A stretch of 64,000 nucleotides of DNA from Candidatus Omnitrophota bacterium (GTDB lineage: Bacteria; Omnitrophota; Gorgyraeia; Gygaellales; JBFMHM01): positions 8,193 through 72,192 of the forward strand of contig JBFMHM010000001.1 in assembly GCA_040753015.1 (NCBI GenBank), in the 5' to 3' direction. The notes beneath the pieces were generated by a model. It was not told where the DNA came from, ran no database searches, and saw only the letters and a list, made by a program, of their open reading frames with translations. The stretch's first letter is position 1. Every line of letters begins with the position of its first letter. Positions 34,298 to 56,601 of this stretch are shown piece by piece. The position numbers were made by a program, and so were the translations under genes.

Positions 34298-37200
34298 ATG
34301 ATTAAACGTATATTTATCTTATTATTGGTAGGGATTTTTTGTTTTAACCACTTATGTTATGGTTTTCAAAACATAAGTGCCTCGAAGCGCGTAACACTTT
34401 CGGGGCCAACATTATTAGGCATTGATTTAAATGGTAGAGACGCGCTGCAGTGCGTCTCTACGGGTATCCAATTCAATCTAAACATCCCCAAAGGCACTAT
34501 TCTTAATCTAGACCAACGTAACAACCTTAAAACCAACATAAACTACTTTCTAACAGCTCTAACCATACAAGACTCTGAATTCTGGGTTAACCTAAACCCA
34601 AACCAGCCTAACAGGCTTACAGGAACAAATATTGCCTACACAGACATGGGCAAGCATCTATTACTCCTAGACCTAAAGCTTAAGAAAGACACAACCTTTG
34701 CATTGTTTCCCGGATTATCACAAGGAGCCACAACATACTGGGAACGTGTGTTTGCTAAAGCTAAAGCTTTAGCAAAATCAAATATCAAATATCAAAAATC
34801 AAATATACAAACTAAAAATCAAAAAGAAGAACAAAACCGAAGAACCGAAGAACTGACGAACAGTCGAACTGTCTCTATCCCCACAACCTTCCGTGTCTGG
34901 ATAGTTCCAGACAAGGCAGAAGTATACGAAGATGGCAAAGGTAGCTGTGTAATAACCAAATCAACATTGAAAGTGTTACTGGAAAGTGAGTATCTACAAC
35001 TCCCCCAGACCCCCTCTTTACCAAAGAGGGGGATAAAGGGGGAGTTTGATAACAACCAAGAGTTACAATCCTACTGTGAATCGCAGCTAAAAGAACTAAT
35101 ACTTCCTAACCTAACACATAAAGTAAACCATGATCCAAGCTACGAGCCACTAAGACAGATATACAATGCAATTATTCTTGCGAAGTGGTTTAAAGCCAAT
35201 GCTTTAAACAGCAAGAATAATAATTACCAATTACCAAATCCCAATGTCAAATCAATTACTAATGACCAATCAACCAATAAAAACCAATTCGAACAGATCA
35301 TTAATTCTAATAATTTAAAGGGGTTAATATCTAAGGATCCAATAACAAAAGAACAAATCTTTGCTGCCTACTTAGACTCAGTAAAACAAGGCGAATACCA
35401 TCTTACCAAGACTAACTACAATGAAGAGCTGAAGGCTAATATTAGGAGAAGTTATGTGAGCGGGGGAGCAGAGTTTACAGCTATAGCTTTAACAGTTGAC
35501 CCAACTGCGACAAGCAAGGCAGGTGCACTTGCAACAGATAATTTAGGAGCAGCAGTTACATTAACAGATAGTCAAAATCAATCAATAAATGTAGCTATAA
35601 AAACTGATTTTGATAGTTCTAACGCAATGGATGTAACTAGTCGAGTAGAGCCGCGATTAATCGCGTCTCTACAAGGTGATATTAAAATATTTGTTTGTCC
35701 ATCTTTAAGTCAATTTGATAACCAAGATAATTTTTCTCTCATTGCTCACGCAGGCAGGGGTGGAGTAAGGGTAGTAGATGGAGTTACCCATAAGCATACC
35801 TTGCGTCAAATATATCTATCCCCTAAACAATTTGAGCTTGTGCAAGGCTTAACCCAAGAAGCCAAAGAACAATTCTGGAAACATGAAATAGCACATCTTG
35901 AACATCCGGAGATGAGCGAAGAAGAGGTGCAAGCGGTTGCGCCGACGGATAAGGTAAGGGAAGAACTCATTGATCCTGATTTAAGAAAATTACTAGAAGC
36001 AGAAAAGGTTCTAAGCATAGAAGAAATAGATCTTTCCGAAGCCTACGTATATGCTGCTGATGACATTGCAGCTATTGCTCAAAACAAACCCGAGCTTGCC
36101 GATAAAGCTCTTGCCGTCTTAGAAAACATCCTAATAAAAACCATCCTAATCCTAAACAGAGAAGAATTAGATCTTTGCGAAGCCTACGTATATGCTGCTA
36201 ATGCCATTGCAGTTATTGCTCAAAACAAACCCGAGCTTATCCGTGAAAGTACCCTCGCTGTTTTAAAAAACATCTTAAACAGCGAAAAATTACATACTTC
36301 CGCCTACGTATATGCTGCTAATGCCATTGCAGCTTACTATGCAAAAGTAAATAAACCTATCCCAGCGGCAGCGCTAAAGGCCCTTCGTCTTCGCTACATA
36401 CGGTTTACCGATCGTGGCATTAGTTTTCATGATGCATCTGCCTTTGCCGAAGGTTTACTTAAAACAGCTTCTCCAGTAACTCTTAAGCCTTTACCCGAGG
36501 CTCTGCCCAAGAAAGAAGCTATAGATTTAAACAGTATCCCTAAACAAGATAACCTCGATGATTTGTTAAAAGATTATACTTTTGTCCGCGCTCAAGGAAG
36601 AACATTAATCTACAAACACAAAACAACAGGTAAATTCTTAGCCTTAAAGCTACTTAAAAAAGATGAAAGTCCAGCAGAACTTACTCATGAAAGCAATATG
36701 TTCGAATACTTTAACAAACATAGGCAAACATTGGGATTACAATCAATCTTTCCTATGTCTATGGTTCTTAACTCTGAGGGTGATAAAGTGTTAAGTGTGG
36801 TTAATTTGCCTCGAGATGCATTAGCTGATTTATCTGTTTCGGTTGAAAAAACAAAGCAATGCTATACAGTTATGGCATATACTACAACTAGCTTTGATTA
36901 CTTTACGTATCTTGATGATCCTGTTTTAAGTAAAGAAGAATTTAATCAAGCAACTGAAAAATCTGTACATGACTTATTTGCTCTCGCAAGTTACGGAATT
37001 ATTCATACTGCATTACTAAGTATTTTTCATACCGTAGAGCAGGATAAAGATAGGCAAGATGCGGGTAAGTATATTTGGATGACAAGTATAATTAGAAAGT
37101 TGACTACAGGTACAGGTAGACTAGAAAATTGGTTAATTGCTGCAAAATACCCTAATTTAAGGCGATCCGGCTTAGCTGATCTAGCTGACATAACTACTCT

Positions 37201-40200
37201 TGATGAATTAATAACTGATCCAAACCATCTTGGAAGCATTCATTTATCCGAAGCAAGAGAATTCTATAATAATCAAGAAGTATTAAAACGCGTATTTCTT
37301 GCAAATTACATAGGAGATTATCTATTGACCTTTGCTTTAATTACAGGTTCGCGATTACATAAACGCAATGAATTTAATTGGCAAGACCCAGAACAATTAG
37401 CCAAGTTTATGCAGGAATTATTTACTCAAGCATTTACTGTAAGTAGATCCCAAGAACAAGCCAATACTGTAGCTAAAGCAATTGACTGGGCTCGTCTTGC
37501 CAGACAAATGAGCTATTTTATGTCAGGGGCGTATGTAGCTGATTTTAGCCCAAAAAACCCACACAGAAATATTCCAGTTGGAATGTTTGAAGGCGAAGAA
37601 ATTTGCTCACTAGGTTCTTTTGACGAAAGTCTTTGGTCAGAAGTTTTTGGTTGGACAAGCCTTGTCCAAGATAATCCTGAAGATAATCCATCAGCGCTTG
37701 GCCCCTTTAACGGCCCTTTTCCATTAACTGAACTGGTTAAAGCATTGTATGTTTATGCAAGCTTACTTGCTACAGATACACAGACTACAGAAGAACAAAC
37801 TGCTGACACCACCATTGCCTCAACAGGCGAGAAGGGTGCAACGCGAGCTGAACACGAGGTATATCATAAACAAGGTAAATTTGAAGAAGTAATTACTGAT
37901 ATTGCTAAAAAAATTGAAGCAGAAAAAAGAGCTGATGGTAAATATGACTTACGCGCTAAAGTTCAAGAAAAAGGTGGTAGTATTCAAAAAATATTTAGCC
38001 AATTACGCATTGAAAATGATGGAATACTTGTAATTATTGACATTCGTTTTCATAGAGACCATGCCGGCAGAAACGAATTCGCGGTCTATGCCCGAAGTGA
38101 AGCTAAAGCTCAACACGAGCTAAGTGAATTACGCGACTGGCGAGATTTTGCAATTGAACAAAACATTGCCACTTTAGAAGATATACAACAAGGCTTACTT
38201 GGAACTAAACTAAGAGAATGGATGAATGATGGAGCCATTCAAGATGCAGAACGCGCCCATCGCAAAAGCTTAATTGAAGAAAAAAGCAAAGCCTTTCATA
38301 GAAAAGCACTTGAGATTGAGGTAAAATCTGATTTCGAAGATATCGAAGAGCCAGGTTACAAAGCTGTTACATTTATCCTTCCAGAAGCGACAGATGGCCA
38401 AGGTGATTTTATGGATTTACTTTCTACGGCAAGGGTATTTCAAAAATCAAATCCTACTAAAAAAGTAAGAATAGCGCTAGAAAGAGCCTCTGCTTATAAA
38501 AAACTTACTAAATTGTTTCCTGATTTTGATCCAGAAAAAATTAGCAATACAGTAGATGACATAGTAGTAATTAATGCTGAACAAGACCCAACTTTTATAG
38601 ATAGCCTTTTGTGTAATAAAGTAAGTATTATTCTTTTATCAGCAGATAAATCACCACCGGCTTTAGGTTTATCAGCAGTTAATATTTATCTGGAAGAACC
38701 TGGTGCTTCAAAAAGAATATATCTGCCGACTAATTTAAAACGCGGAGAAGTTTATAAAGATAAACAAGGGCGCTTACATATTGTTTATACCACTGGTTTT
38801 AGCACAGATTCTTTAGGTATGGTTATAGATAAAACTTTAAAACAAAAGATGCAAACTGCAGGTAACTCAAAGCAAAACCTATTACATTCTTTAGCTCAAG
38901 AAAAACCCGGCCTTCAATTACCAGCTGATACCATAGATTCCAAATGGGGATTTGTTTATTATAATAGTTCTCATGTTGAAGTTGTTTATAGTAGTTTTGG
39001 ATATTTTTCTTTTTTATATCAAGCGTTAAAAAATGGGAATATTGATAAAGGACAAAAAATTACAATATTTGACTTTAGCGATACCGTTGATTCCTGTGAT
39101 GGAGTGCGTAACTATGATGCTTATAAAGCTTTTACCCATATTTTTCCTGACGGCAAGATAATAGTGGGAGAAAAATTTCCTAATGTTAGAGTTGTTCATG
39201 TCTCTATGGCATCACATAATTTATTCTTGAGATTTATGTATATGGCAGAGCTGCCTATATTAGTTACAGGTACAAGAAGTTTAACAGAGGCAATCGAATT
39301 AGGCAAACCCTTTGTTTATGACTTAATGAATTGGAAAGTCGGCCTTGTGCAGGGCATGGTTGAGCAGGCAATTCGTCATATGCCTTTGGACCAAGCATTA
39401 ATAATCGCGGCTTGTTTAAATGGCTACCCTGCAATAGACGAACAAGAAAAATATACGAGATTACTTACATTATACAGACAATTAAGAACGCAAATCCCAC
39501 TTGTAAAGTCACCCGATGATATAGGTTTAGTGCTAAATCAATTTGCAGAAAATAATGGGTTAGATAGGAATAAATTTGGCTATGCATTTTGGGAACCTCT
39601 TAAAAGTGTTACCGGCCCCGAAATAACTGAAGAAGAATTAGTTGCATTAAAAATTTGTTGGATTATGCTAGGTGGTTTAAGAAGCATTCACTTAAAACAT
39701 AGTCCCAGGATTTTATATGATTCTATTTATCAAGAAGCATTTAGAGCTTTGACAGAAGTATTAGCAAATTTACCTGCGTTAGAGGATAATTTAGCGCAGC
39801 AAATAACTACATTAGTTGATGCTTATAACCAAGATGAGCAAGAGGCACTTAGAATTTTACGAACAAATGTTGATGCCGCTGTTGGCCAAAAAGAAGACGA
39901 AATTGACTTTATTATCTCAAGTGATGGAGGCGTAGCTGATAAAGATGTTTCGTTGCTTCCTCCCAAGTACGACGGAGAGCGATTTAGCCCGCAGACTATC
40001 TATGATTTTGGCGCAGGTTTATCTCCTCTAGAAAGACAGCACTTAAGGCGAAGCTTGGTTAGGTTAACGGCTCAACTAAGAAATAAGGATGTAGCCGTGC
40101 GAACTCAAGCAGTAACTGCTTTGATAAATCTTTTCGCCAATGAATTTGGGCTTTTTTCAAGAGGTATTCTTCAACAGGCATATCAGAATCAAGAACAATT

Positions 40201-43200
40201 AACTAATCTTTTTATACTTATGCGCCCTCTTTTAGAAAATACTCTCTTAAATGGAAGCGAAGCAGATGATGCCTATCAAAACTTAGCTAATCAACTTGCT
40301 AATCCAACCACTGGTTCTAGTCAAGAAACTATCCTAAGGACTGCCAATAACCTTGGTTGGAATTTAATCTTTATTAATGATAGGCCAATATTTGTTTTAA
40401 CTGATGAAGCGCATAATTACGCCACATCAACTGCTTCAGATGAGGTGCGCCTTGTTAATCTTTTGCCAGAAGGAATAGTTTTATCAAATGCACGTCCAGT
40501 ACAGGCAAGTGAGGTTACGCAACCTGATGTTAGCGCACCAGTAGTTTCGCAGCCAGTGCAATTACCACAGCCACAGCAGCCAACTACTGCTTTAGTTGTA
40601 CCTAACCAAGTACAAGGAGTACTTGTTAAACCGCGTACAATTGCCGGAGTAATTGCTAAGTTTAAGCCTATAAATTATCAACCAACACTAAACAGGCCGC
40701 TTATTCAAAGAATTGCAATACTTATTAACGAAGGCGATTATAACCAAGCAGCTACGCTTATCCAAAACAACCATACAAGAGCACAAGCGCAGGCACTCTT
40801 AACCGAGCTTTTAATTGCACACCCAGGTCCGCAAACATTCGAGTTACTAGCTTATTTAGATATAGGTCTAGCAACAGATAGTTTTATGCAGGCATTTGCT
40901 ACAACTAATGGCGAACTAAATTTAGAACGCATAAACAATATTATATTTATGCTCTCACTCATACAAAGAGACAGAATTTATCTTTGGCAAGCGCAGTCGG
41001 ATTTACGTTCCGCTGGAACGCTTAGGGAGAGCCTGCCATTTTCTTGTTTTATTCTTGCCAGAATGAGCCAAGAGAGGGAATATCAGCCATTTGTTGCAAG
41101 AATGAGAAGGCTTATTGATGATATTGTGCCACTTGGAACAGTTGCTGGGTTAAACCGCATAGAAACATTACTTAAAATTGTTAATGATTTAGCACCAGAA
41201 GCTCTAGTTGCACAAGAACAAACATATTCCTTCGCAAGAAGCATTGATGAAATTGATGAAATTGTTGCTAGCTTAAATAGCGCAGGAGATGATTTAAGCG
41301 CTGTTTCAGATTATTGTATTCTAGGTCGTTCGCCAACCAATGTACTTCGTGCGGTTAAAAAATATGCAGCAGCCAAGATTCTTCCCTGGCGAGCAGTTTT
41401 AGTTAGATTACTTTCAGCGCAATCACCAGAAGCTATTGCAACATTTATTGCTGTGCTTGACCAGCAGCAAACAGCTTGGTATCGAAATGATTTAGGCGAT
41501 GAATTAGAAAGAGTAGAGTTTTTCTCTACCTTGCTTGCAGAAATTGACAGAGAACTTGCCATAAACACTATAGACGTGCTTGTTACTGACCAAATACTTT
41601 ATCATCAAGACTCACGCAGATTAGCAGAGCGTATTCTTCTTGGCCCGGCAATTGAAGCAATAGATGCAATGGTTGCAATACACACTGAACTTTGCAAAAG
41701 AGATAGCCGTTATAATACAGAGTTTGAATTCCAGCTAACCGGTGTGTTACTTGCTGAAGACTTGACTAAAGGCCAAAGACAGCAAGCAGTTAAAAGATGT
41801 GCTCAAATCATCGAAACTACTGATGATAATTGGCATAAACTAAAAGCTGACTTCCGTGTACTTATTGCAATGCGTACCGACTCAGGTCAAGCCCGCAAAG
41901 ATGCAATCGCTGAGTTGGGGAGGTTAGGCACACCCGATGCTGTGGATGTGTTGCTTGGGCTACTAATACAAAGGAGCATACCTAGATATAGTTTACTAAA
42001 AGCATTGGCTAGGGGTTTAACTGTGGACCGAAAAACAGATGAGGATAAAATTTTTCAAGACGGTCTTAAAACAATTCATTCAGGTAGATATATTAAAGAA
42101 GCTATAAATGCGCTCTCTCAGTTAGCACGAACAGATTTGGATAGTTTTACAGCGCCTCAAGTATTTTTTATTAAATGGCTTGGTATGTATCTGAATTATC
42201 AGAATATAAATGGCGCTTATCTTCCAAATGATTCGGATAGGGTTGGCATTGTTAATATTTATATTATTCTAGGATTCCGCGGGCATAGTTATGCAGTATC
42301 AAAGTTTATTCAAGAGTGTGAGGGATATGATAAACTTCCTGATCTTCCACGAGATGATTTAAGGGGATGGTTTAATCCAGAAATCGAACAATGGGTTGTT
42401 TGGCGAAGAGATTTAATTGAAAAATTAGCTGATCCTAGATTAGATCAAGCTAATTGGCAATTTGAACAAAACCAATTTTTTCTTCTTCTAGAAGCAATTG
42501 GCGTGCCAAAAGAAGTTTCACGTAATATACGTCAACTATGTATTAGTGAAGATAAAAATGAAACAATAGCTGCAATCCAAGCCCTTGGCGAAAGTAAGCA
42601 TTCCGCTTCTGTTGAATTGCTCATCGATTGTTGTTTACCAATTGAACAACGTTCTATGTCTATTACTCACTTGAAATATAGAGATAAAGATGGCCGAAGA
42701 GGTCTTGACAACGATATTTGTCAAGCCGCGATTATAGCATTAGGTAAAATCGCTGACCCTCGCGCAGTTGAGCCTTTGATTGAATGTTTGAAGGATACGA
42801 ACAAATATGTTCGTCGCAACGCTGTCGAAGCTCTTGCTAAAATTGGCATGCCGGCATTGCCTGCATTAGAAGCAACTTTACGCCGTCCAGAGTATAATAA
42901 AGTTATTGCTGAAATACAAAGAATAATTGATCGTATTCGCGCTAAAAATCCTAGCATAACCGAGCATCAATTTTTCGCTCCGGTTTTATCGTCCGCTTTA
43001 AAACAAGAACTTATCGCTAAATTAAATGGCTCGGATTTATTAGATGCCCCTATTGCTGAACGGACAAAGCAAGTAATTAGAATATTAACTAGCGATAAAT
43101 ATTATGATGAGCAATCATTTAACTTGCTCATTGCCGCTTTAAATGAAATTAAAGCTGGAATACGCATTAACTTAGAAGGCCTGCATATTGCCGGTGATTA

Positions 43201-43405
43201 TAAAGAAATATTAGAGCTAGTGCTTAAGCCGCTTACCGATGACCTTGCCGCGGCTAATGCAAGCGATCCAAATACAACATTAGAAGGAATGGAAGTATTA
43301 GCCAAAGCACAATCTGTATCGTCTAAAGGGCAAGGCGCAAAAACCGCGCCTGTTACAACCGGCGGCATTGACCTATCGCAAATACAGATTACGATGATTG
43401 GATAA
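34298..43405 (+). CDS. giant secreted multidomain protein (3035 aa) with HEAT/PBS-lyase-type repeats
   Basis: An uninterrupted 9.1-kb ORF with an N-terminal signal peptide ([22 protein letters not shown]). HEAT_2/PBS-type repeats lie near aa 570-680 ([20 protein letters not shown] x3). More lie in the C-terminal part ([40 protein letters not shown]). A Pro/Gln-rich linker is present. I could not assign the central domains. Confidence 0.8.
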   Translation: [3035 protein letters not shown]

Positions 43406-44854: not shown

Positions 44855-45151
44855 GAAGCAGGGCCGATAAAGGCAAACCACGAGAAATCGTGGGACATCA
44901 TAATGTAACAGTAAACGTCAATTAAACATTATGATCTCGAAATATAGCTTGTAAGTAAAAAATTAAGCTATAATCGAGGCAAAGCCGCAAGCCTAAATTG
45001 TTTAAGGAAGCAAGTCAGGCTTAAACAACAAGGTGGTTGGGTTGCCAAAGAGCGCCAGAACAGATCGAGGTGAGGAGAAGCAAAAATAGCGCCTCCTTAT
45101 CGGCCATTATTTATGATATAATAATCCCGAACATTAATTCGGGATTTTTTT
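44855..45151 (+). ncRNA. candidate structured non-coding RNA of about 295 nt, class unknown
   Basis: No ORF of 60 aa or more exists in 400 bp. The 5' GGCCGATAAAGG pairs with the 3' CCTCCTTATCGGCC. Internal hairpins include CCACGA-gaaa-TCGTGG, ATCATAATGT...ACATTATGAT, TATAGCTT...AAGCTATA and TTGTTTAAG-13nt-CTTAAACAA. The 3' end is a strong intrinsic terminator ATCCCGAA-cattaa-TTCGGGAT plus T7 (45124-45151). Confidence 0.45.
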
Positions 45152-49737: not shown

Positions 49738-49766
49738 TTGACAAACTTTTTTCCATCATTTATAAT
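49738..49766 (+). promoter_or_regulatory. consensus sigma70-type promoter TTGACA-17-TATAAT for groESL
   Basis: A perfect -35 at 49738-49743 and a perfect -10 at 49761-49766. Confidence 0.6.
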
Positions 49767-49792
49767 TAGCACTCGTTATCGTTGAGTGCTAA
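49766..49792 (+). promoter_or_regulatory. CIRCE element (HrcA operator) TTAGCACTC-N9-GAGTGCTAA
   Basis: A perfect match to the CIRCE consensus inverted repeat, overlapping the -10 and lying upstream of groES. Confidence 0.9.
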
Positions 49793-49824: not shown

Positions 49825-50115
49825 ATGTCTATACAACCATTGGGTGACAGAGTGCTAATAAAAGCGCTTGAAGCAGAAGAAAAAACAAAAGGCGGCATAG
49901 TTCTTCCTGATACAGCAAAAGAGAAACCACAGGAAGGAAAAGTCGTCGCGGTAGGTAAAGGCAAAACGCTAGATAACGGCTCAATACAAACACTTGAAGT
50001 TAAAGCCGGAGATAAAGTACTTTACGGAAAATATTCTGGCACAGAAATCACAACTAAAGAAGGCGAAGAATATCTAATAATGAAAGAAGAAGATATCTTA
50101 GCTATAGTGAAATAA
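49825..50115 (+). CDS. groES: co-chaperonin GroES
   Basis: The sequence [13 protein letters not shown]...[23 protein letters not shown] is the GroES signature. The RBS AAAGGAGG lies 6 nt upstream of the ATG at 49825. The ORF-track start at 49786 is too early. Confidence 0.93.
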
Positions 50116-50129
50116 GAGGAGGAAACGTA

Positions 50130-51761
50130 ATGTCAAAACAATTGCTGTATAATGAAGAAGCAAGGCGTAAAATCCTTTCCGGTGTTGAGCAATTAGCTGC
50201 GGCAGTAAAGGTAACACTCGGGCCAAAAGGAAGAAATGTCGTAATCGACAAAAAATTTGGTTCACCAACAATCACAAAAGACGGTGTAACCGTTGCAAAA
50301 GAGGTTGAACTCGAATGCCCTTATGAAAATATGGGTGCACAGCTAATCAAAGAAGTTGCAGAAAAAACTTCTGATTTAGCAGGCGATGGTACAACCACAG
50401 CAACAATTTTAGCTGAAGCAATTTATCGCGAAGGCTTAAAAAATGTTACAGCTGGCGCAAACCCAATGGCATTAAAAAGGGGTATTGAGCAAGCAGTAGA
50501 AAAAATTACCGAAGAATTAAAAACATTATCAAAACCAATTAAAGACAAAAAAGAAATTGCACAAGTTGGATCAATTGCCGCAAATGGCGATACCGAAATT
50601 GGCAATTTAATTGCTGAAGCAATGGATAAAGCCGGAAAAGACGGCGTTATTACCGTTGAAGAGGCAAAATCAATTGCAACCACCTTAGATGTTGTTGAGG
50701 GTATGCAATTTGATCAAGGATATTTATCTCCATATTTTTCTACTGATATGGAAAGAATGGAATGCATCCTTGATGAGCCATATATTTTAATCCATGAGAA
50801 AAAAATATCTGCTTTAAAAGATATGCTTCCATTGTTAGAAAAAATTGCGCGTGCTGGCAAACCAATGCTAATTATTGCCGAAGAAGTTGAAGGCGAAGCA
50901 CTTGCAACATTAGTTGTCAATAAACTTCGCGGAACACTAACCTGTGTAGCTGTAAAAGCTCCCGGTTATGGCGACAGGCGCAAAGCAATGCTCGAAGATA
51001 TCGCAATTCTAACCGGCGGTAAAGCTATAACTGAAGATCTTGGCATAAAGCTAGAAAATGTCGATATTTCAGACCTTGGCCGCGCAAAAAGGGTTAAAAT
51101 TGATAAAGAAAATACAACTATCGTTGAAGGCGCAGGAAAAACTGCTGCTATAAACGGCAGAATTAATCAAATCAGAAAACAAATCGAAGAAACAGATTCT
51201 GATTATGATAAAGAAAAGCTACAAGAACGCTTAGCAAAACTTGCTGGCGGAGTTGCCGTAATCAATGTTGGCGCTGCAACTGAAACTGAAATGAAAGAGA
51301 AAAAAGCCCGCGTTGAAGATGCGCTACATGCAACAAGAGCTGCACGCGAAGAAGGTGTTGTACCAGGTGGTGGAGTAGCATTAGTTAGGGCTCTGCCTTG
51401 CCTTGAAAAAATTAAACTTGATGGCGATGAAAAAATCGGTGCGAATATTGTAAGGCGCGCACTGGAAGAGCCTATAAGACAGTTGGCAGAGAATGCCGCT
51501 CTAGAAGGTTCTGTAATCGTACAAAAAGTTAAAGAAGGAAAAGGCAACTTTGGCTTCAATGTCGCAACTGGTGAATATACCGATATGATGGATGCCGGGA
51601 TAATTGACCCAACAAAAGTTACCCGCACAGCACTACAAAATGCATCTAGTATCGCATCATTACTTCTTACAACTGAGTGCGTCATTACCGACAAACCAGA
51701 AGAGAAAAAAGAAGCAGCAATGCCTCCAATGCCTCCAGGCGGCGGCTACGGCGGATATTAA
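50130..51761 (+). CDS. groEL: chaperonin GroEL
   Basis: The ATP-binding motif [15 protein letters not shown]...[10 protein letters not shown] and the C-terminal GGM-like tail ([12 protein letters not shown]) are present. Confidence 0.97.
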
Positions 51762-51793
51762 CCAATTTTTTCTAACGAAAAAATTGCCTAAAA

Positions 51794-51918
51794 GGCTGCA
51801 AGTTTAAATCTGATAAGATTTAAACTGTTATGCAGGTTACACTGAACCGTGATTTTTACGGGGCAGTGTTAAGTCATAGCGAAAATCAACCCCGCCTCTA
51901 AACAGAGGCGGGGTTTTT
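51794..51918 (+). ncRNA. structured RNA element, copy A of a tandem pair, ending in intrinsic terminator (CCCCGCCTCT-aaac-AGAGGCGGGG-TTTTT)
   Basis: It is paralogous to copy B. P1 is CTGCA/TGCAG, the P2 hairpin is GTTTAAATC-tgataa-GATTTAAAC, and the motif GGTTACACTGAACCGT is conserved. Confidence 0.45.
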
Positions 51919-51973
51919 ATTTGCTTGCAATGTCTATTATCCCGAATTTTGCAATAGCAAAATTCGCCCCTGA

Positions 51974-52109
51974 GGGCCGCAAGATTAAATCTCGTCGAGA
52001 TTTAATCTGTTCTGCGGGTTACCCTGGACCGTCAGCGAAGCGCTTTGACTGGTTCGGTGGTTAATACAAAAAAACCAACCCCATCTCTAGAAATAGGGAT
52101 GGGGTTTTT
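51974..52109 (+). ncRNA. structured RNA element, copy B of the tandem pair, ending in intrinsic terminator (CCCCATCTCTAG-aaa-TAGGGATGGGG-TTTTT)
   Basis: P1 is CCGCA/TGCGG and P2 is AGATTAAATCTC-gtcga-GAGATTTAATCT. Both are compensatory relative to copy A. The conserved motif is GGTTACCCTGGACCGT. Confidence 0.45.
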
Positions 52110-52138
52110 CTTTACCAACATTCTACCCAAAAATTTTC

Positions 52139-52167
52139 TTGACACCTGTATAAACATACAGTATTAT
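52139..52167 (+). promoter_or_regulatory. promoter TTGACA-17-TATTAT with LexA (SOS) box CTGTATAAACATACAG in the spacer (52146-52161)
   Basis: This is the gamma-proteobacterial-type CTGT-N8-ACAG palindrome, flanked by A...TA. It overlaps the promoter of the gene encoding a LexA domain, which is the classic autoregulatory layout. Confidence 0.7.
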
Positions 52168-52174
52168 AACGTTC

Positions 52175-53680
52175 ATGATACGCCAAAGAAAAAAAAATAT
52201 AAAACTTACTAAACGTCAGGAACAAATTTTTAATTTTATTGTTAAAAACATAAAAAACTTCGGTTTCCCGCCTTCTATTTCAGAGTTTCAAAAAAAATTC
52301 TCTTTTAAATCACCTAATGCCGTTCAAAGCCATCTCAATAGCCTAGAAAAAAAAGGTTTTATTTCTCGACATCCGCATAAATCACGCGCTATAGAAATTT
52401 TAATTAATCAAAAAACGATGCTAAATAACTCTAATTCTACAATGGATATCCCCATTGTTGGCCGTGTTGCGGCCGGCGCGCCAATCATAGCCGAAGAAAA
52501 TATCGAAGGAACGCTCGCGGTCGATAAAACGCTTGTTAAAGATCCAAATAAAACTTTTGCTTTACAGGTAAGAGGCGACAGTATGATTAATGCAGGAATC
52601 CTGAATAATGACTTTGTAGTTGTCCAACAACAATCTACTGCGGATGAGGGTGAAATCGTCGTTGCTCTTATTGGCGAAGAAGCCACAGTAAAAAGATTTT
52701 ATAAAGAAAAAGATTGCATTAAATTAATTGCCGAAAATGAGAATTTTGCGCCAATAATAATAACGCCAAAAGATAATGATATTCAAATATTGGGAAAAGT
52801 AAAAGGTGTTATAAGGAAATTTAAAACAGATAACACCATCGCACCAATTAAACAAGCTGCACGCTCGCCTAACAAAGAAAAGAGCGATGTCTTTTTTAAA
52901 TCAGAAAACATAAAAATTTTGAATAATGATATACTTAACACTGAAAATATTTTACCATCTAGTGTTGATTTAATAATTACCTCTCCGCCATATAATCTTG
53001 ATATTAAATATGGTGCTCATGACGACAAACTGTCTTATGAAGAATACCTCAAATTTAGTAAAGAGTGGATGGCTAGATGTTTTGAGCTTGCCAAAGACGA
53101 TGGACGCTTTTGTTTAAATATCCCGCTTGATAAAAATAAGAACGGACAACAAAGCGTTTGCGCTGATATTACATCAATTGCAAAACATATAGGCTGGCAT
53201 TATCATTCTACGATAATTTGGAATGAAGGTAATATTTCTAGACGTACAGCATGGGGTTCATGGCTTAGCGCTTCAGCCCCCTATGTCATTGCGCCTGTTG
53301 AAGTAATTGTAGTTTTTTATAAAAAATTTTGGAAAAAACAAAAACCAGGAAAATCTGATATAACAAAAGAAGAATTTATGGAATGGACTAATGGTGTTTG
53401 GTCTTTTAACGGCGAAAGCAAAAAAAGAATAGGGCACCCTGCGCCATTCCCTGTGGAGCTGCCAAAAAGATGTATTAAACTCTTTAGCTATACTACTGAT
53501 ACCATCTTAGATCCATTTCTAGGGAGCGGATCAACTTTACTAGCTTGTATTAAAGAAAAAAGGGGCGGCATAGGCGTAGATATAGATAGACAATATTGTG
53601 ATTTAGCAAAAAGAAGGATAATGAATTATAATGCCCAGTGTAATTTTAACTTTAAGGAGACAGTATGTCAGGAGAAATAG
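52175..53680 (+). CDS. LexA repressor (wHTH + S24 autopeptidase) fused in-frame to a beta-class DNA methyltransferase (N4-cytosine/N6-adenine type)
   Basis: Residues 1-216 are a complete LexA. The DNA-binding domain is FPPSISEFQKKFSFKSPNAVQSHLNSLEKKGFI, the cleavage site is VAA-GAP, and the catalytic Ser and Lys are at GDSM and VKRF with E. coli-like spacing. Residues 260-501 are an MTase with motif IV (SPPY) preceding motif I (DPFLGSGST). There is no stop codon or separate start between the two parts. Confidence 0.8.
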   Translation: MIRQRKKNIKLTKRQEQIFNFIVKNIKNFGFPPSISEFQKKFSFKSPNAVQSHLNSLEKKGFISRHPHKSRAIEILINQKTMLNNSNSTMDIPIVGRVAAGAPIIAEENIEGTLAVDKTLVKDPNKTFALQVRGDSMINAGILNNDFVVVQQQSTADEGEIVVALIGEEATVKRFYKEKDCIKLIAENENFAPIIITPKDNDIQILGKVKGVIRKFKTDNTIAPIKQAARSPNKEKSDVFFKSENIKILNNDILNTENILPSSVDLIITSPPYNLDIKYGAHDDKLSYEEYLKFSKEWMARCFELAKDDGRFCLNIPLDKNKNGQQSVCADITSIAKHIGWHYHSTIIWNEGNISRRTAWGSWLSASAPYVIAPVEVIVVFYKKFWKKQKPGKSDITKEEFMEWTNGVWSFNGESKKRIGHPAPFPVELPKRCIKLFSYTTDTILDPFLGSGSTLLACIKEKRGGIGVDIDRQYCDLAKRRIMNYNAQCNFNFKETVCQEK

Positions 53681-54249
53681 TCCAATCCAATTTGATAATG
53701 GAATATTTTAAAAATCATCCCAACCAAGATATTAAACATCCTGAGATTGTTGATTGGGTAACAGCTGAATACAATAAAAGAACTGGTAAGGTTTTTCGAG
53801 ATCCAGATAGAGCTATTAGAAAGCTATCCCAAGAAGGACAATTAATAAAAATTAAAAAAGGTGTGTATAAGTATGACCCTTCTTTTATTAAAAATCGAAA
53901 ATTAAAAGATTTTACAACTGAACAAAAGAAAGAAATATTTAAACGAGATGCTTATAAATGCGTGGTTTGTGGCCGCGGAATTAATGACGGAGTAGAAATT
54001 CACGCTGATCATATAAAGCCAAGAGATTTAGGCGGTGAATCAAAAATAGAAAATGGTCAAACATTGTGTGCCCAGCATAACTTTCAAAAGAAAAATTATA
54101 AACAGACAGAAACAGGAAAGAAGATGTTTATAAGACTTTGTGAATTAGCAAAAAAATCTAAAGATAAAAAGTTGCAAAAATTTTGTGAAGAAGTATTAAC
54201 AGTCTATGAAAAAAATAATATTAACGGTCACATAAGATGGAATAAATAG
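53665..54249 (+). CDS. HNH endonuclease with N-terminal winged-helix-like domain (putative restriction endonuclease partner of the MTase)
   Basis: The HNH motif is CVVCGRGINDGVEIHADHIKPRDLGGESKIENGQTLCAQHN. The gene overlaps the upstream ORF by 16 nt with a GGAGA RBS, which indicates translational coupling. Confidence 0.7.
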   Translation: MSGEIVQSNLIMEYFKNHPNQDIKHPEIVDWVTAEYNKRTGKVFRDPDRAIRKLSQEGQLIKIKKGVYKYDPSFIKNRKLKDFTTEQKKEIFKRDAYKCVVCGRGINDGVEIHADHIKPRDLGGESKIENGQTLCAQHNFQKKNYKQTETGKKMFIRLCELAKKSKDKKLQKFCEEVLTVYEKNNINGHIRWNK

Positions 54250-54263
54250 AGGAATATAGACAT

Positions 54264-54896
54264 ATGGGTATTTTATATCTTGATTTGTTATTAATAATAA
54301 TCGGGATCTCTGCATTGTTGGGAGAAAATAAGATTGATAAAATTGGAACTTTTTTCTATTTAATGTTTATATTCGGTTTTTTCTTTACTCTCGGGGAAGC
54401 TTTAACAAAAATTGTTACAAGAAAAGACTATAATTTGTGGATGATATTTTTTATTTTTACCTTTTTTATAATTATAAATTTTAGGCAAGTTAAAAACTTT
54501 ACCACTTTCGTTGTTTGTAGTAAGATAATAACGTTAAATTACGATTTAGAAACAGAAGAATTTAAAAATAATAAGAAAATAAAAATAGCTACTCCCGAAG
54601 GCAGGTGTATTATTGCTAAAGAAAATGGACTGTATCGCATATATTTGCCTCGAAAGATTGTAGATGTAAATCTTTTTTATACTTCTTATGATGCTAACGG
54701 AATACACAAAGGTCGTATTTTATGGATTAAGGATGTGGATTTTACATTTAAAGATAGGTATATAGAATCATATCACGTTTTAAACGAAAGTGCTAATAAT
54801 GGAAAAGGAAGGCATCTAATAAAATATTACTATCGGTTGAATATTTTTGAGCTTTTAAAAAAATCCAGTAGTTTTTGGAGAAGCTATTTAGAATAA
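54264..54896 (+). CDS. hypothetical membrane protein (3 N-terminal TM helices + soluble C-terminal domain)
   Basis: Hydrophobicity only. No motifs. Confidence 0.4.
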   Translation: MGILYLDLLLIIIGISALLGENKIDKIGTFFYLMFIFGFFFTLGEALTKIVTRKDYNLWMIFFIFTFFIIINFRQVKNFTTFVVCSKIITLNYDLETEEFKNNKKIKIATPEGRCIIAKENGLYRIYLPRKIVDVNLFYTSYDANGIHKGRILWIKDVDFTFKDRYIESYHVLNESANNGKGRHLIKYYYRLNIFELLKKSSSFWRSYLE

Positions 54897-54948
54897 TCCC
54901 AGACCATAATCAGAATTCCGAAGACACAGCAGTTAATTAACCCTTAAA

Positions 54949-56088
54949 ATGAAAAAGCTCTTGGCAATTTTTGCACTAATCCTCACGATAACAACAAACT
55001 CTTTCGCCTCGGAAATTTGGTATCAGGCTCGGGTAAGAGATGCGAGTGATCGGAGTTATGAGAAAGAAGTTATTGCGCTACTTGATTCTGCCAAACAATC
55101 AATTACAATCTCAATGTACGTCATCAAACCGCATGAAATAAAAAACCACCCAGTAAATCTTCTGCTTAATGATCTTTTAGAGGCTAGAGGCCGAGGGGTT
55201 GAAGTAAATATCTACCTAAATGCCAGGTTTAACAATGTCTTAGAATCTGGCGATATTACGCGTAATCCTATTTATGCCACACTAGAACAAAAAGGCGCAA
55301 AAATATACTTTGTATCAAGCGCAACCATGCTTCACGATAAACTTATTATCATTGACGAGCGCTACATCGTAGAAGGTAGCACAAATTGGAGCGTTGCCGC
55401 TCTAAAAAATAATCTTGAATCAGCAACAATCATAGATTCACCTGAGCTTGCCAAAAGAAAATTATCTAGAATCAGCCAATTACCGTTAGAAGGCCAAGCA
55501 AAGCCAACCACCAAAGAAGAAAAGCCAATAGTTGCCAATTTACCACCAGAAATAGAAATAAAAGCTTGCCTTATTACCGATAAAAACTTTTTCTCTAAAA
55601 TGGTGAGAAACCGAGACGAACATACAATTGATCTATATCTTTATTTAATTGGGTTATCACAAGCCTATAACTCAAATGAATTCTTTATAGATCTTGAAAC
55701 AATACCACTCGATATTTCGCTTCCTAAAAAATGGCCCGAAACTGCTAAACGCCGCCAAATCATAAAATTATTAAAGAAGCTTTCGAAAAACTATCATCTT
55801 ATACAAGTAGAATTTTATCCCGCTAAAGATAGCTGGGTAAAATTAATAAACTTACCTGGCGAATCATTTCTTATCCCCAATACTTATTTTACTGAAGTTT
55901 ATATTAATCGCTTTAGCGCAAAAGCTCAACTGCTCATCCTGACAGATTTTCTTTTAAAGAAAGAGGGAAAAAGTATTTATTCTACATCTCTAGCTGATCT
56001 TAGCCGACTCCTTAACCTTAACCCCAAGATAATCTCCAAGGCGTTGTCAGAAGTAAAAAACTACACAGAGAATCAAAGAATTGACTAA
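54949..56088 (+). CDS. secreted phospholipase-D-superfamily (single HKD motif, Nuc-like) protein with uncharacterised C-terminal domain
   Basis: A signal peptide MKKLLAIFALILTITTNSFA is followed by the HKD motif region LHDKLIIIDERYIVEGSTNWS. Confidence 0.65.
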   Translation: MKKLLAIFALILTITTNSFASEIWYQARVRDASDRSYEKEVIALLDSAKQSITISMYVIKPHEIKNHPVNLLLNDLLEARGRGVEVNIYLNARFNNVLESGDITRNPIYATLEQKGAKIYFVSSATMLHDKLIIIDERYIVEGSTNWSVAALKNNLESATIIDSPELAKRKLSRISQLPLEGQAKPTTKEEKPIVANLPPEIEIKACLITDKNFFSKMVRNRDEHTIDLYLYLIGLSQAYNSNEFFIDLETIPLDISLPKKWPETAKRRQIIKLLKKLSKNYHLIQVEFYPAKDSWVKLINLPGESFLIPNTYFTEVYINRFSAKAQLLILTDFLLKKEGKSIYSTSLADLSRLLNLNPKIISKALSEVKNYTENQRID

Positions 56089-56115
56089 AATTAAAAAAAG
56101 CTTATAATTAAACTA

Positions 56116-56601
56116 ATGTTAGATTATTTAGGCATATTTAAAGAATTAAACAAAAGAAAAATAAAGTATATTGTCGTAGGGGGAATGGCAATAAACCTAT
56201 ATGGCATCCCACGAATGACCTATGACTTAGATTTCATACTTTTACTCGAAAATAACAATATTAAAAAATTTATTACTTTAATGAAAAAATGGGGCTTTAA
56301 ACCAAAAGTGCCCGTAAATATAATGGATTTTTCAAATAAAGACAAAAGAAATGACTGGATAAAGAATAAAAATATGAAGGCCTTCAATCTAGTAAATCTG
56401 AATTGGGGAATTGCAGAAATTGACATAATTATCGATAGCCCAGTTAATTACGAAAAAGCTTATAAGAACATTAAATACATATCCTTACGGAATACACAGA
56501 TTCCAACTATAGGCATAGACGATCTTATCAAAATGAAGCATAAAACCGGAAGAAAACAAGATTTAGCCGATGTCAAAACTTTAATGAAATTGAAAAGATG
56601 A
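56116..56601 (+). CDS. minimal nucleotidyltransferase-fold protein (AbiEii/DUF-type NTase)
   Basis: The sequence YIVVGGMAINLYGIPRMTYDLDFIL has the GG...G..R.T.DLD nucleotidyltransferase signature. Confidence 0.45.
   Translation: MLDYLGIFKELNKRKIKYIVVGGMAINLYGIPRMTYDLDFILLLENNNIKKFITLMKKWGFKPKVPVNIMDFSNKDKRNDWIKNKNMKAFNLVNLNWGIAEIDIIIDSPVNYEKAYKNIKYISLRNTQIPTIGIDDLIKMKHKTGRKQDLADVKTLMKLKR

Follow-up and report, generated by a model that had tools for sequence, protein, structure and literature searches.

In the 64-kb stretch of DNA analysed here (hereafter the window; ~33% G+C), which belongs to a metagenome-assembled genome (MAG) of Candidatus Omnitrophota, the entire 3' untranslated region (3'UTR) of groEL has been duplicated in tandem, head to tail, and both copies have retained the same series of RNA hairpins, each series closed by an intrinsic terminator. 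The two copies, named unit A and unit B, lie between groEL and an operon encoding a fusion of LexA with a methyltransferase (LexA-MTase) and an HNH endonuclease. We regard it as fairly probable that they constitute a duplicated, structured 3'UTR of the groES-groEL (groESL) message, whose twin terminators would shield the downstream restriction-modification (R-M) operon and whose hairpins upstream of the terminators, P0 to P2, would have a stabilising or processing role. The region offers a clean case of tandem duplication of a whole 3'UTR in which every helix has been kept through compensatory change, a pattern arguing that selection can act on the structure of bacterial 3'UTRs and not on the terminator alone; its reach is limited to one uncultivated genome, with no homologs detected. 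It is a lineage-specific instance of a structured 3'UTR whose intrinsic terminators stand in tandem; no described RNA family includes it and, for now, its status is that of a candidate lineage-specific structured RNA and not of a new family. Unless another sequence is named, coordinates are window positions and the features described are on the plus strand.

Tandem duplication of the groEL 3'UTR

Unit A (51755-51925) corresponds to the groEL 3'UTR in full, opening at the stop-codon region and closing ~10 nt beyond the terminator. Unit B (51934-52116) is a second copy of the whole module, ~80% identical to A. The units, each ~175 nt long, are arranged head to tail with an 8-nt junction (51926-51933) and a repeat period of ~180 nt. 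A first-pass annotation, all of whose quoted sequences were found where it had placed them, had described two elements of common architecture between groEL and the LexA-MTase operon. These elements are real and, when aligned, share 82-83% identity (~80% over the extended units); the spans proposed for them, 51794-51918 and 51974-52109, proved too short, since a further hairpin (P0) and a mini-hairpin precede P1 in each copy. The copies can be aligned from the groEL stop-codon region onwards (TATTAACC in A vs TATTATCC in B), and their homology reaches ~10 nt 3' of each terminator, so that the duplicated segment is the entire groEL 3'UTR, and a unit boundary placed at the stop codon fits a local duplication. 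The ancestral stop codon TAA of unit A reads TAT in unit B. A 26-nt pattern shared by the units occurs twice in the window against 0.00 occurrences expected. Small open reading frames (ORFs) covering the units, such as that at 51921-52064, were considered and rejected, as their frame is broken by indels between the copies and they have no Shine-Dalgarno sequence.

Hairpins preserved in both copies

The elements as originally noted fold with z-scores of -9.5 and -6.9 relative to shuffled sequence, none of 200 shuffles being as good, and the extended units give -9.2 and -6.6; in a 120-nt sliding fold over both strands, the region ranks first for structure in the whole 64 kb (residual z -7.4). 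The plus strand folds are more stable than those of the minus strand, with -57.6 vs -51.5 kcal/mol for one copy and -61.4 vs -49.7 kcal/mol for the other, and three G.U pairs are found in the plus strand and none in the minus strand. The hairpins were predicted independently in the fold of each copy, and position-by-position alignment of the five helices from these separate folds yields 50 pairs. Between A and B, 38 of the 50 are identical, eight show double compensatory changes (three of them in P0, two in the terminator and one each in outer P1, inner P1 and P2), two carry a one-sided change to a G.U pair, two are A.G mismatches of A turned into pairs in B, and not one is disrupted. When the 18 stem substitutions were placed at random on copy A, a mean of 13 pairs was disrupted and never fewer than 4 in 200,000 trials. 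The structure is preserved in both copies, and the compensatory changes, which the first-pass annotation had already pointed out, are more extensive than it claimed (eight double and two compatible); this covariation is one between two paralogs only, not across independent lineages. The G.U pairs, the greater stability of the plus strand and the paired changes favour an RNA of the plus strand over a DNA palindrome.

In each unit the helices follow one another in the same order, namely P0, the mini-hairpin, a bipartite P1 with a GUUN bulge on its 3' side, P2 and the terminator. In unit A, P0 is a 10-bp AU-rich hairpin, CAAUUUUUUC-UAAC-GAAAAAAUUG (51763-51772/51777-51786), which starts 2 nt 3' of the groEL stop codon and is followed by the mini-hairpin GCC-UAAAA-GGC (51786-51796). 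P1 consists of an outer helix of 5 bp, CTGCA/TGCAG (51796-51800/51831-51835), and an inner helix of 11 bp with a GAUA loop (51801-51811/51816-51826), joined on the 3' side by the 4-nt bulge GUUA (51827-51830). After an unpaired linker, GUU (51836-51838), comes P2, ACACUG-AA-CCGU / ACGG-GG-CAGUGU, with a tandem A.G internal loop (51839-51869). In unit B, P0 is CGAAUUUUGC-AAUA-GCAAAAUUCG (51943-51952/51957-51966), where three pairs differ from A in both partners, and the mini-hairpin is GCCC-CUGA-GGGC (51966-51977). Its P1 has the outer helix CCGCA/UGCGG (5 bp, 51977-51981/52013-52017), the inner helix AGAUUAAAUCUC/GAGAUUUAAUCU (12 bp, 51982-51993/51997-52008) and the bulge GUUC (52009-52012), so that the differences between the copies in the outer and inner P1 helices are located as first described. 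P2 of unit B is a 17-bp imperfect hairpin with two G.U pairs and two bulged U (52021-52061); its stem is lengthened by a 9-nt insertion, its 5' arm is nearly as in A and its 3' arm is remodelled. Altogether, B is longer than A in P1, P2 and the terminator. The loop of P0 and the bulge of P1 are complementary in A (UAAC/GUUA) and not in B (AAUA/GUUC), and a kissing interaction between them was set aside as chance.

The G+C-rich terminators with five T residues reported for each copy are also present. The terminator of unit A (51888-51915, to 51918 with the tail) has a 12-bp stem with 8 G-C pairs, an AAAC loop, U5 (TTTATTT tail) and an A-tract on its 5' side, and that of unit B (52077-52106, to 52111 with the tail) has a 13-bp stem, a GAAA loop, U5 (TTTCTTT tail) and an A7 tract on its 5' side. 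Both combine the features by which intrinsic terminators are recognised, that is, a G+C-rich stem, a loop of 3-8 nt and a U-tract, on the transcribed strand and at the end of a gene, and the region contains 8 terminator-like sites against 2.9 expected from shuffles.

A motif reading GGTTAC(A/C)CTG(A/G)ACCGT (51835-51850 in A, 52017-52032 in B) had been described as conserved and single-stranded. Its conservation stands, with 14 of the 16 nt identical between the paralogs; its single-strandedness does not, as the 12 nt ACNCUGRACCGU form the 5' arm of P2 and GUU alone is unpaired.

Genomic setting and search for relatives

The groES promoter, TTGACA-17-TATAAT (49738-49766), scores 12/12 against the sigma-70 consensus, and the last base of its -10 hexamer is overlapped by a perfect CIRCE operator, TTAGCACTC-N9-GAGTGCTAA (49766-49792), which implies control of groES by HrcA in this Omnitrophota genome. 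The promoter is followed by groES (49825-50115) and groEL (50130-51761, ending in TAA at 51759-51761), the product of the latter being 100% identical to a Candidatus Omnitrophota MAG protein at NCBI. This CIRCE-controlled promoter is the presumed source of the transcripts entering units A and B. A promoter scan detected no sigma-70-like site between 51761 and 52139, and candidates resembling sigma-32, sigma-54 or extended -10 promoters, looked for by eye 5' of unit B, were mis-spaced or not common to both units. The organism clearly uses near-consensus sigma-70 promoters; the units are probably not transcribed independently, and the suggestion of duplicated small RNAs (sRNAs) with promoters of their own finds no support. 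Another suggestion of the first-pass annotation, 3'UTR-derived RNAs of groEL, is the one that fits best: P0 of unit A opens just 2 nt past the stop codon, a promoter-like site is lacking and the duplicated unit is the whole 3'UTR.

Downstream, 3' of the unit B terminator, the LexA-MTase gene has its own near-consensus promoter, TTGACA-17-TATTAT (11/12; 52139-52167), the spacer of which contains an SOS-type box, CTGTATAAACATACAG (CTGT-N8-ACAG; 52146-52161). The gene (52175-53680) encodes, according to Pfam, a LexA moiety (winged helix-turn-helix and S24 peptidase) fused to an N6/N4 methyltransferase; its ATG (52175) is only 7 nt 3' of the -10 hexamer and has no Shine-Dalgarno sequence, and its mRNA is thus predicted to be leaderless. 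The overlapping gene for an HNH endonuclease (53665-54249) has the Shine-Dalgarno sequence AAGGAG (53655-53660), and the arrangement would be that of an SOS-cleavable controller of an R-M system. A LexA-MTase and HNH cassette with 79% amino acid (aa) identity and an identical promoter and operator is found in a Logan assembly (L009, 1-2199), where the 88 nt 5' of the cassette are unrelated to units A and B; in this comparison, made with a single close homolog, the units are independent of the R-M cassette. The LexA-MTase and HNH genes are treated as neighbours outside the RNA module, and the operon promoter as its downstream limit. The database contains hundreds of LexA-MTase fusions, of which the few that bear a source name come from Patescibacteria/CPR. 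Beyond the R-M genes a small defence-like island continues (54264-56601), with genes for an unannotated, hydrophobic and probably membrane protein of 210 aa, a PLD-like (PLDc_2) protein of 379 aa and a DUF6036/AbiEii-like nucleotidyltransferase of 161 aa.

The first-pass annotation had recognised no known Rfam family by eye, and a scan with Rfam 15 bears this out: at the gathering threshold the units are unmatched and five tRNAs are the sole matches in the window. At E<=10 the best sub-threshold matches are ncr1175 (29.8 bits vs 60) and the trpB motif (24.9 vs 59), whose alignments cover generic hairpin-plus-terminator features only. A third copy was found in the 64 kb neither by pattern search with 3 mismatches nor, with filters off, by a covariance model (R1) made of P1, the linker and P2. 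In larger collections, the exact pattern CTGTTNNNNNGGTTACNCTGNACCGT, which has 19 fixed bases and would miss homologs differing at any of them, matched once in the GTDB species genomes and six times in the JGI metagenomes, never with homology in the flanks; these matches are ascribed to chance because they lie in high-GC or coding sequence with unrelated flanks (for example, a crotonase-like VTLNR motif). A 14-base core retrieved 96 stretches from IMG/VR, and none of 80 of these passed R1; a blastn search in distant mode against phages and plasmids left the units unmatched.

The closest other groEL proteins are 83-85% identical and a search with the 150 C-terminal aa of groEL returned nothing closer than ~74% identity, which indicates a lineage without a close relative in the collections searched. 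R1 matched nowhere in the groEL-downstream regions of seven distinct Omnitrophota relatives, with groEL 83-85% identical, in which a plain terminator or unrelated structure follows groEL; the order uvrB - pantothenate kinase - groES - groEL is common to some of the seven. As far as can be seen in these collections, the units appear to be lineage-specific. Repeats unrelated to the units precede the groEL-region terminator in two Omnitrophota relatives, with GGGACUGUCCC present twice in one (L013, 4632-4790, plus strand) and repeats of ATAGTCGATAGTCTATAGT in the other (L111, 1736-1810, plus strand), and long groEL 3'UTRs may arise repeatedly in Omnitrophota.

Two other stretches of the window can be mentioned in their own right. 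Upstream of uvrB (45208), positions 44862-45049 match the c-di-GMP-I riboswitch aptamer RF01051 just below threshold (32.9 bits vs a gathering threshold of 35; E = 8e-5 in a 411-nt search). The first hairpin of this match is expanded by an insertion of 101 nt, and the match has a TTGAAA...TATATT promoter-like site on its 5' side and an intrinsic terminator (45117-45150) on its 3' side; this stretch is the second most structured of the window. Furthermore, a giant ORF of 3035 aa (34298-43405) contains in-frame tandem repeats at 36011-36334, with periods of 141 and 120 nt and 91-94% identity.

Interpretation, rival explanations and known systems

In the reading that we favour, a duplicated groESL 3'UTR with twin terminators, units A and B would be the tail of the groESL message, whose local hairpins would fold while the RNA is being made. 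Terminator A, with its 12 bp and U5, would stop most transcripts and terminator B, with 13 bp and U5, would catch the read-through, and the pair would in this way shield the LexA-methylase/HNH operon from heavy heat-shock transcription. Read-through would favour the nuclease over the methylase, since LexA-MTase needs a 5'-terminal AUG and the HNH gene has the strong AAGGAG, and insulation is a plausible selective reason for the double stop. The design logic suggested is one of twin terminators separating a heat-shock operon from an R-M operon with a leaderless methylase and a nuclease that has its own ribosome-binding site. P0 to P2, kept intact in both copies and even lengthened in B, can be expected to act at the RNA level, most likely as barriers to 3'-exonucleases or as processing sites setting the stability of the groESL mRNA; P1, with its two stems and one-sided internal loop, resembles a ribonuclease III (RNase III) site. 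We infer three points of this reading: that the units are transcribed from the groES promoter, that insulation is the reason for the double stop, and that P0 to P2 stabilise the message or serve in its processing.

Several observations weigh against this interpretation. The 5' and 3' ends that it gives to the transcript are deduced from the sequence. The intact and even extended P0 to P2 of unit B are not explained by a simple back-up terminator, and a long structured 3'UTR is no general need of groESL, as the seven relatives have short or unrelated 3' regions. Conservation of the P2 5' arm and linker next to a remodelled 3' arm may indicate a function that depends on sequence, such as that of a seed or protein site, and goes beyond that of a barrier. 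Finally, with two paralogs, compensatory changes in perfect palindromes could stem from intrastrand template switching and not from selection.

Among the alternatives, the units might be paralogous trans-acting sRNAs, either released from the groESL 3'UTR through cleavage by RNase E or RNase III, or else transcribed each from its own weak promoter. In such sRNAs GUUAC(A/C)CUG(A/G)ACCGU would be the seed or would bind a protein, and other genes would thereby be tied to heat-shock expression; we consider this unlikely, though worth keeping in view. A location in the 3'UTR with a terminator shared with the mRNA is a hallmark of type II 3'UTR-derived sRNAs (PMC7038943, PMC9731577), and it is found in unit A, where no promoter-like site separates the stop codon (51761) from the terminator (51915), and in unit B only given read-through of terminator A. 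The same idea would suit the P2 5' arm and linker, conserved in sequence opposite a remodelled 3' arm, the A-rich spacer preceding the terminator and U-tail, which resembles an Hfq-type module, and the retention of the structure in both copies; moreover, TATTAT at 51935-51940 could serve as a -10 for unit B. This hexamer, however, has neither a -35 nor a correctly placed TG, a sigma-70-like promoter was detected for neither unit, and the putative seed is mostly buried in P2. In addition, when the conserved 26-mer was compared with the 64-kb window only its own antisense strand and a tRNA scored as complementary, and conservation of the seed cannot be shown because homologs are absent from every collection searched. 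Quite unlikely, in our estimate, is the more ambitious proposal of two paralogous riboregulators in the groESL tail, acting either as sRNAs freed at the RNase III-like P1 or through thermolabile AU-rich P0 and inner P1 helices tuning the life-time of the mRNA, with the GUUAC(A/C)CUG(A/G)ACCGU arm as seed or protein site. If true, it would add a new structured RNA class without an Rfam relative, in a phylum for which we know of no characterised regulatory RNA.

The remaining explanations concern repeats, palindromes and attenuators. As intergenic repeats, rich in hairpins and placed at a gene's 3' end, the units recall REP elements, and the copy count covers 64 kb of a contig of at least 417 kb; the two copies could be chance neighbours from an intergenic family, REP/BIME-, MITE- or terminator-cassette-like, that is dispersed and possibly mobile. 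Yet the high-copy interspersed repeat of which the first-pass annotation had warned did not appear, as neither search revealed a further copy in the 64 kb and none was found in ~66 kb from relatives, and the exact-pattern matches in a GTDB species genome and JGI metagenomes are chance occurrences in coding sequence. The sequences at the ends of the units (TATTAACC... and ...TTTGCT) do not form inverted repeats and have no flanking target duplications, no transposase or RAYT is nearby, the neighbours being groEL, LexA-MTase, HNH, PLD-like and AbiEii-like genes, and the boundary coincides with the groEL stop codon, so that this origin appears very unlikely. Read as DNA, each of P0, inner P1 and the terminators forms a perfect inverted repeat, and template switching can yield apparent compensatory double changes in a single step; the hairpins could thus be protein-binding palindromes or by-products of such switching, with an RNA function limited to termination. 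We find this most improbable: P2 is imperfect, with bulges and G.U pairs that pair only in plus strand RNA, the half-sites change together, at odds with the fixed half-site recognition of a dimeric protein, the five helices are all different and have no common half-site, and the folds of the plus strand are the more stable ones. The notion of tandem attenuators or riboswitches gating groEL read-through into the LexA-methylase operon, also raised in the first-pass annotation, draws on the succession of two structured domains, each closed by its own terminator, upstream of an operon, which recalls tandem riboswitches. Here the evidence leaves a practically negligible probability, as the operon has its own promoter and operator 3' of the unit B terminator (52106), so that the units are outside its 5' leader, the predicted leaderless mRNA would not be translated from a read-through transcript, and L009, the single close homolog, has the cassette with an identical promoter and operator and no units. 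Moreover, unit A begins at a stop codon and not behind a promoter, an Rfam aptamer match is absent and, as judged solely from truncated minimum-free-energy folds, no antiterminator competes with the 12-13 bp terminator stems: when the 3' arm of the terminator was removed in silico, P0, P1 and P2 persisted and the 5' arm found partners of 4-5 bp only (GGUU/AACC pairing). ToxI-like repeats of type III toxin-antitoxin systems were rejected on their period (~34-45 nt vs ~180 nt here) and on the downstream gene, a LexA-S24-methyltransferase and not ToxN/AbiQ, and integron attC sites, IS200/IS605 ends and retron non-coding RNAs on anatomy and neighbours.

The duplicated groESL 3'UTR can be compared with several known systems. 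Tandem riboswitches and attenuators, such as the tandem glycine riboswitch or tandem aptamer-terminator arrangements, likewise place two similar structured domains in series, each with a terminator; the units differ in their position, after a stop codon and before a downstream promoter, and in having no antiterminator, no Rfam aptamer and, in L009, no association with the downstream genes. Like the REP/BIME elements of the E. coli malE-malF type, they are stable hairpins immediately 3' of a coding sequence and could stand in the way of 3'-5' exonucleases, but they are far longer, comprise five helices, occur as only two adjacent copies in 64 kb, lack a REP-like conserved tetranucleotide and have no RAYT nearby. 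The geometry of P1, with coaxial stems of 5 bp and 11-12 bp and a one-sided 4-nt internal loop, resembles that of the RNase III signals of phage T7 (e.g., R1.1), a likeness of shape only, as no sequence similarity was found. In the T7 sites, a geometry of this kind directs a single cut, after which the upstream RNA ends in a protective 3' hairpin. With the type II 3'UTR sRNAs of enterobacteria, CpxQ, NarS and GlnZ (PMC7038943, PMC9731577), the units share the location in a 3'UTR, the use of the parental terminator, the lack of a promoter of their own and a conserved stretch 5' of the terminator; unlike them, they are two tandem paralogs from an unrelated phylum, known here from sequence alone, with no sequence homology to those sRNAs and with a conserved stretch that is mostly paired. 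The tandem intrinsic terminators that follow highly expressed operons are matched by the G+C-rich hairpins of 12-13 bp, in series, each with a tetraloop, U5 and an A-tract. What distinguishes the groEL 3'UTR from plain tandem terminators is that ~90-130 nt of structured region were duplicated as well and have been kept by compensatory change, whereas a back-up terminator alone would not require the preservation of the region upstream of it.

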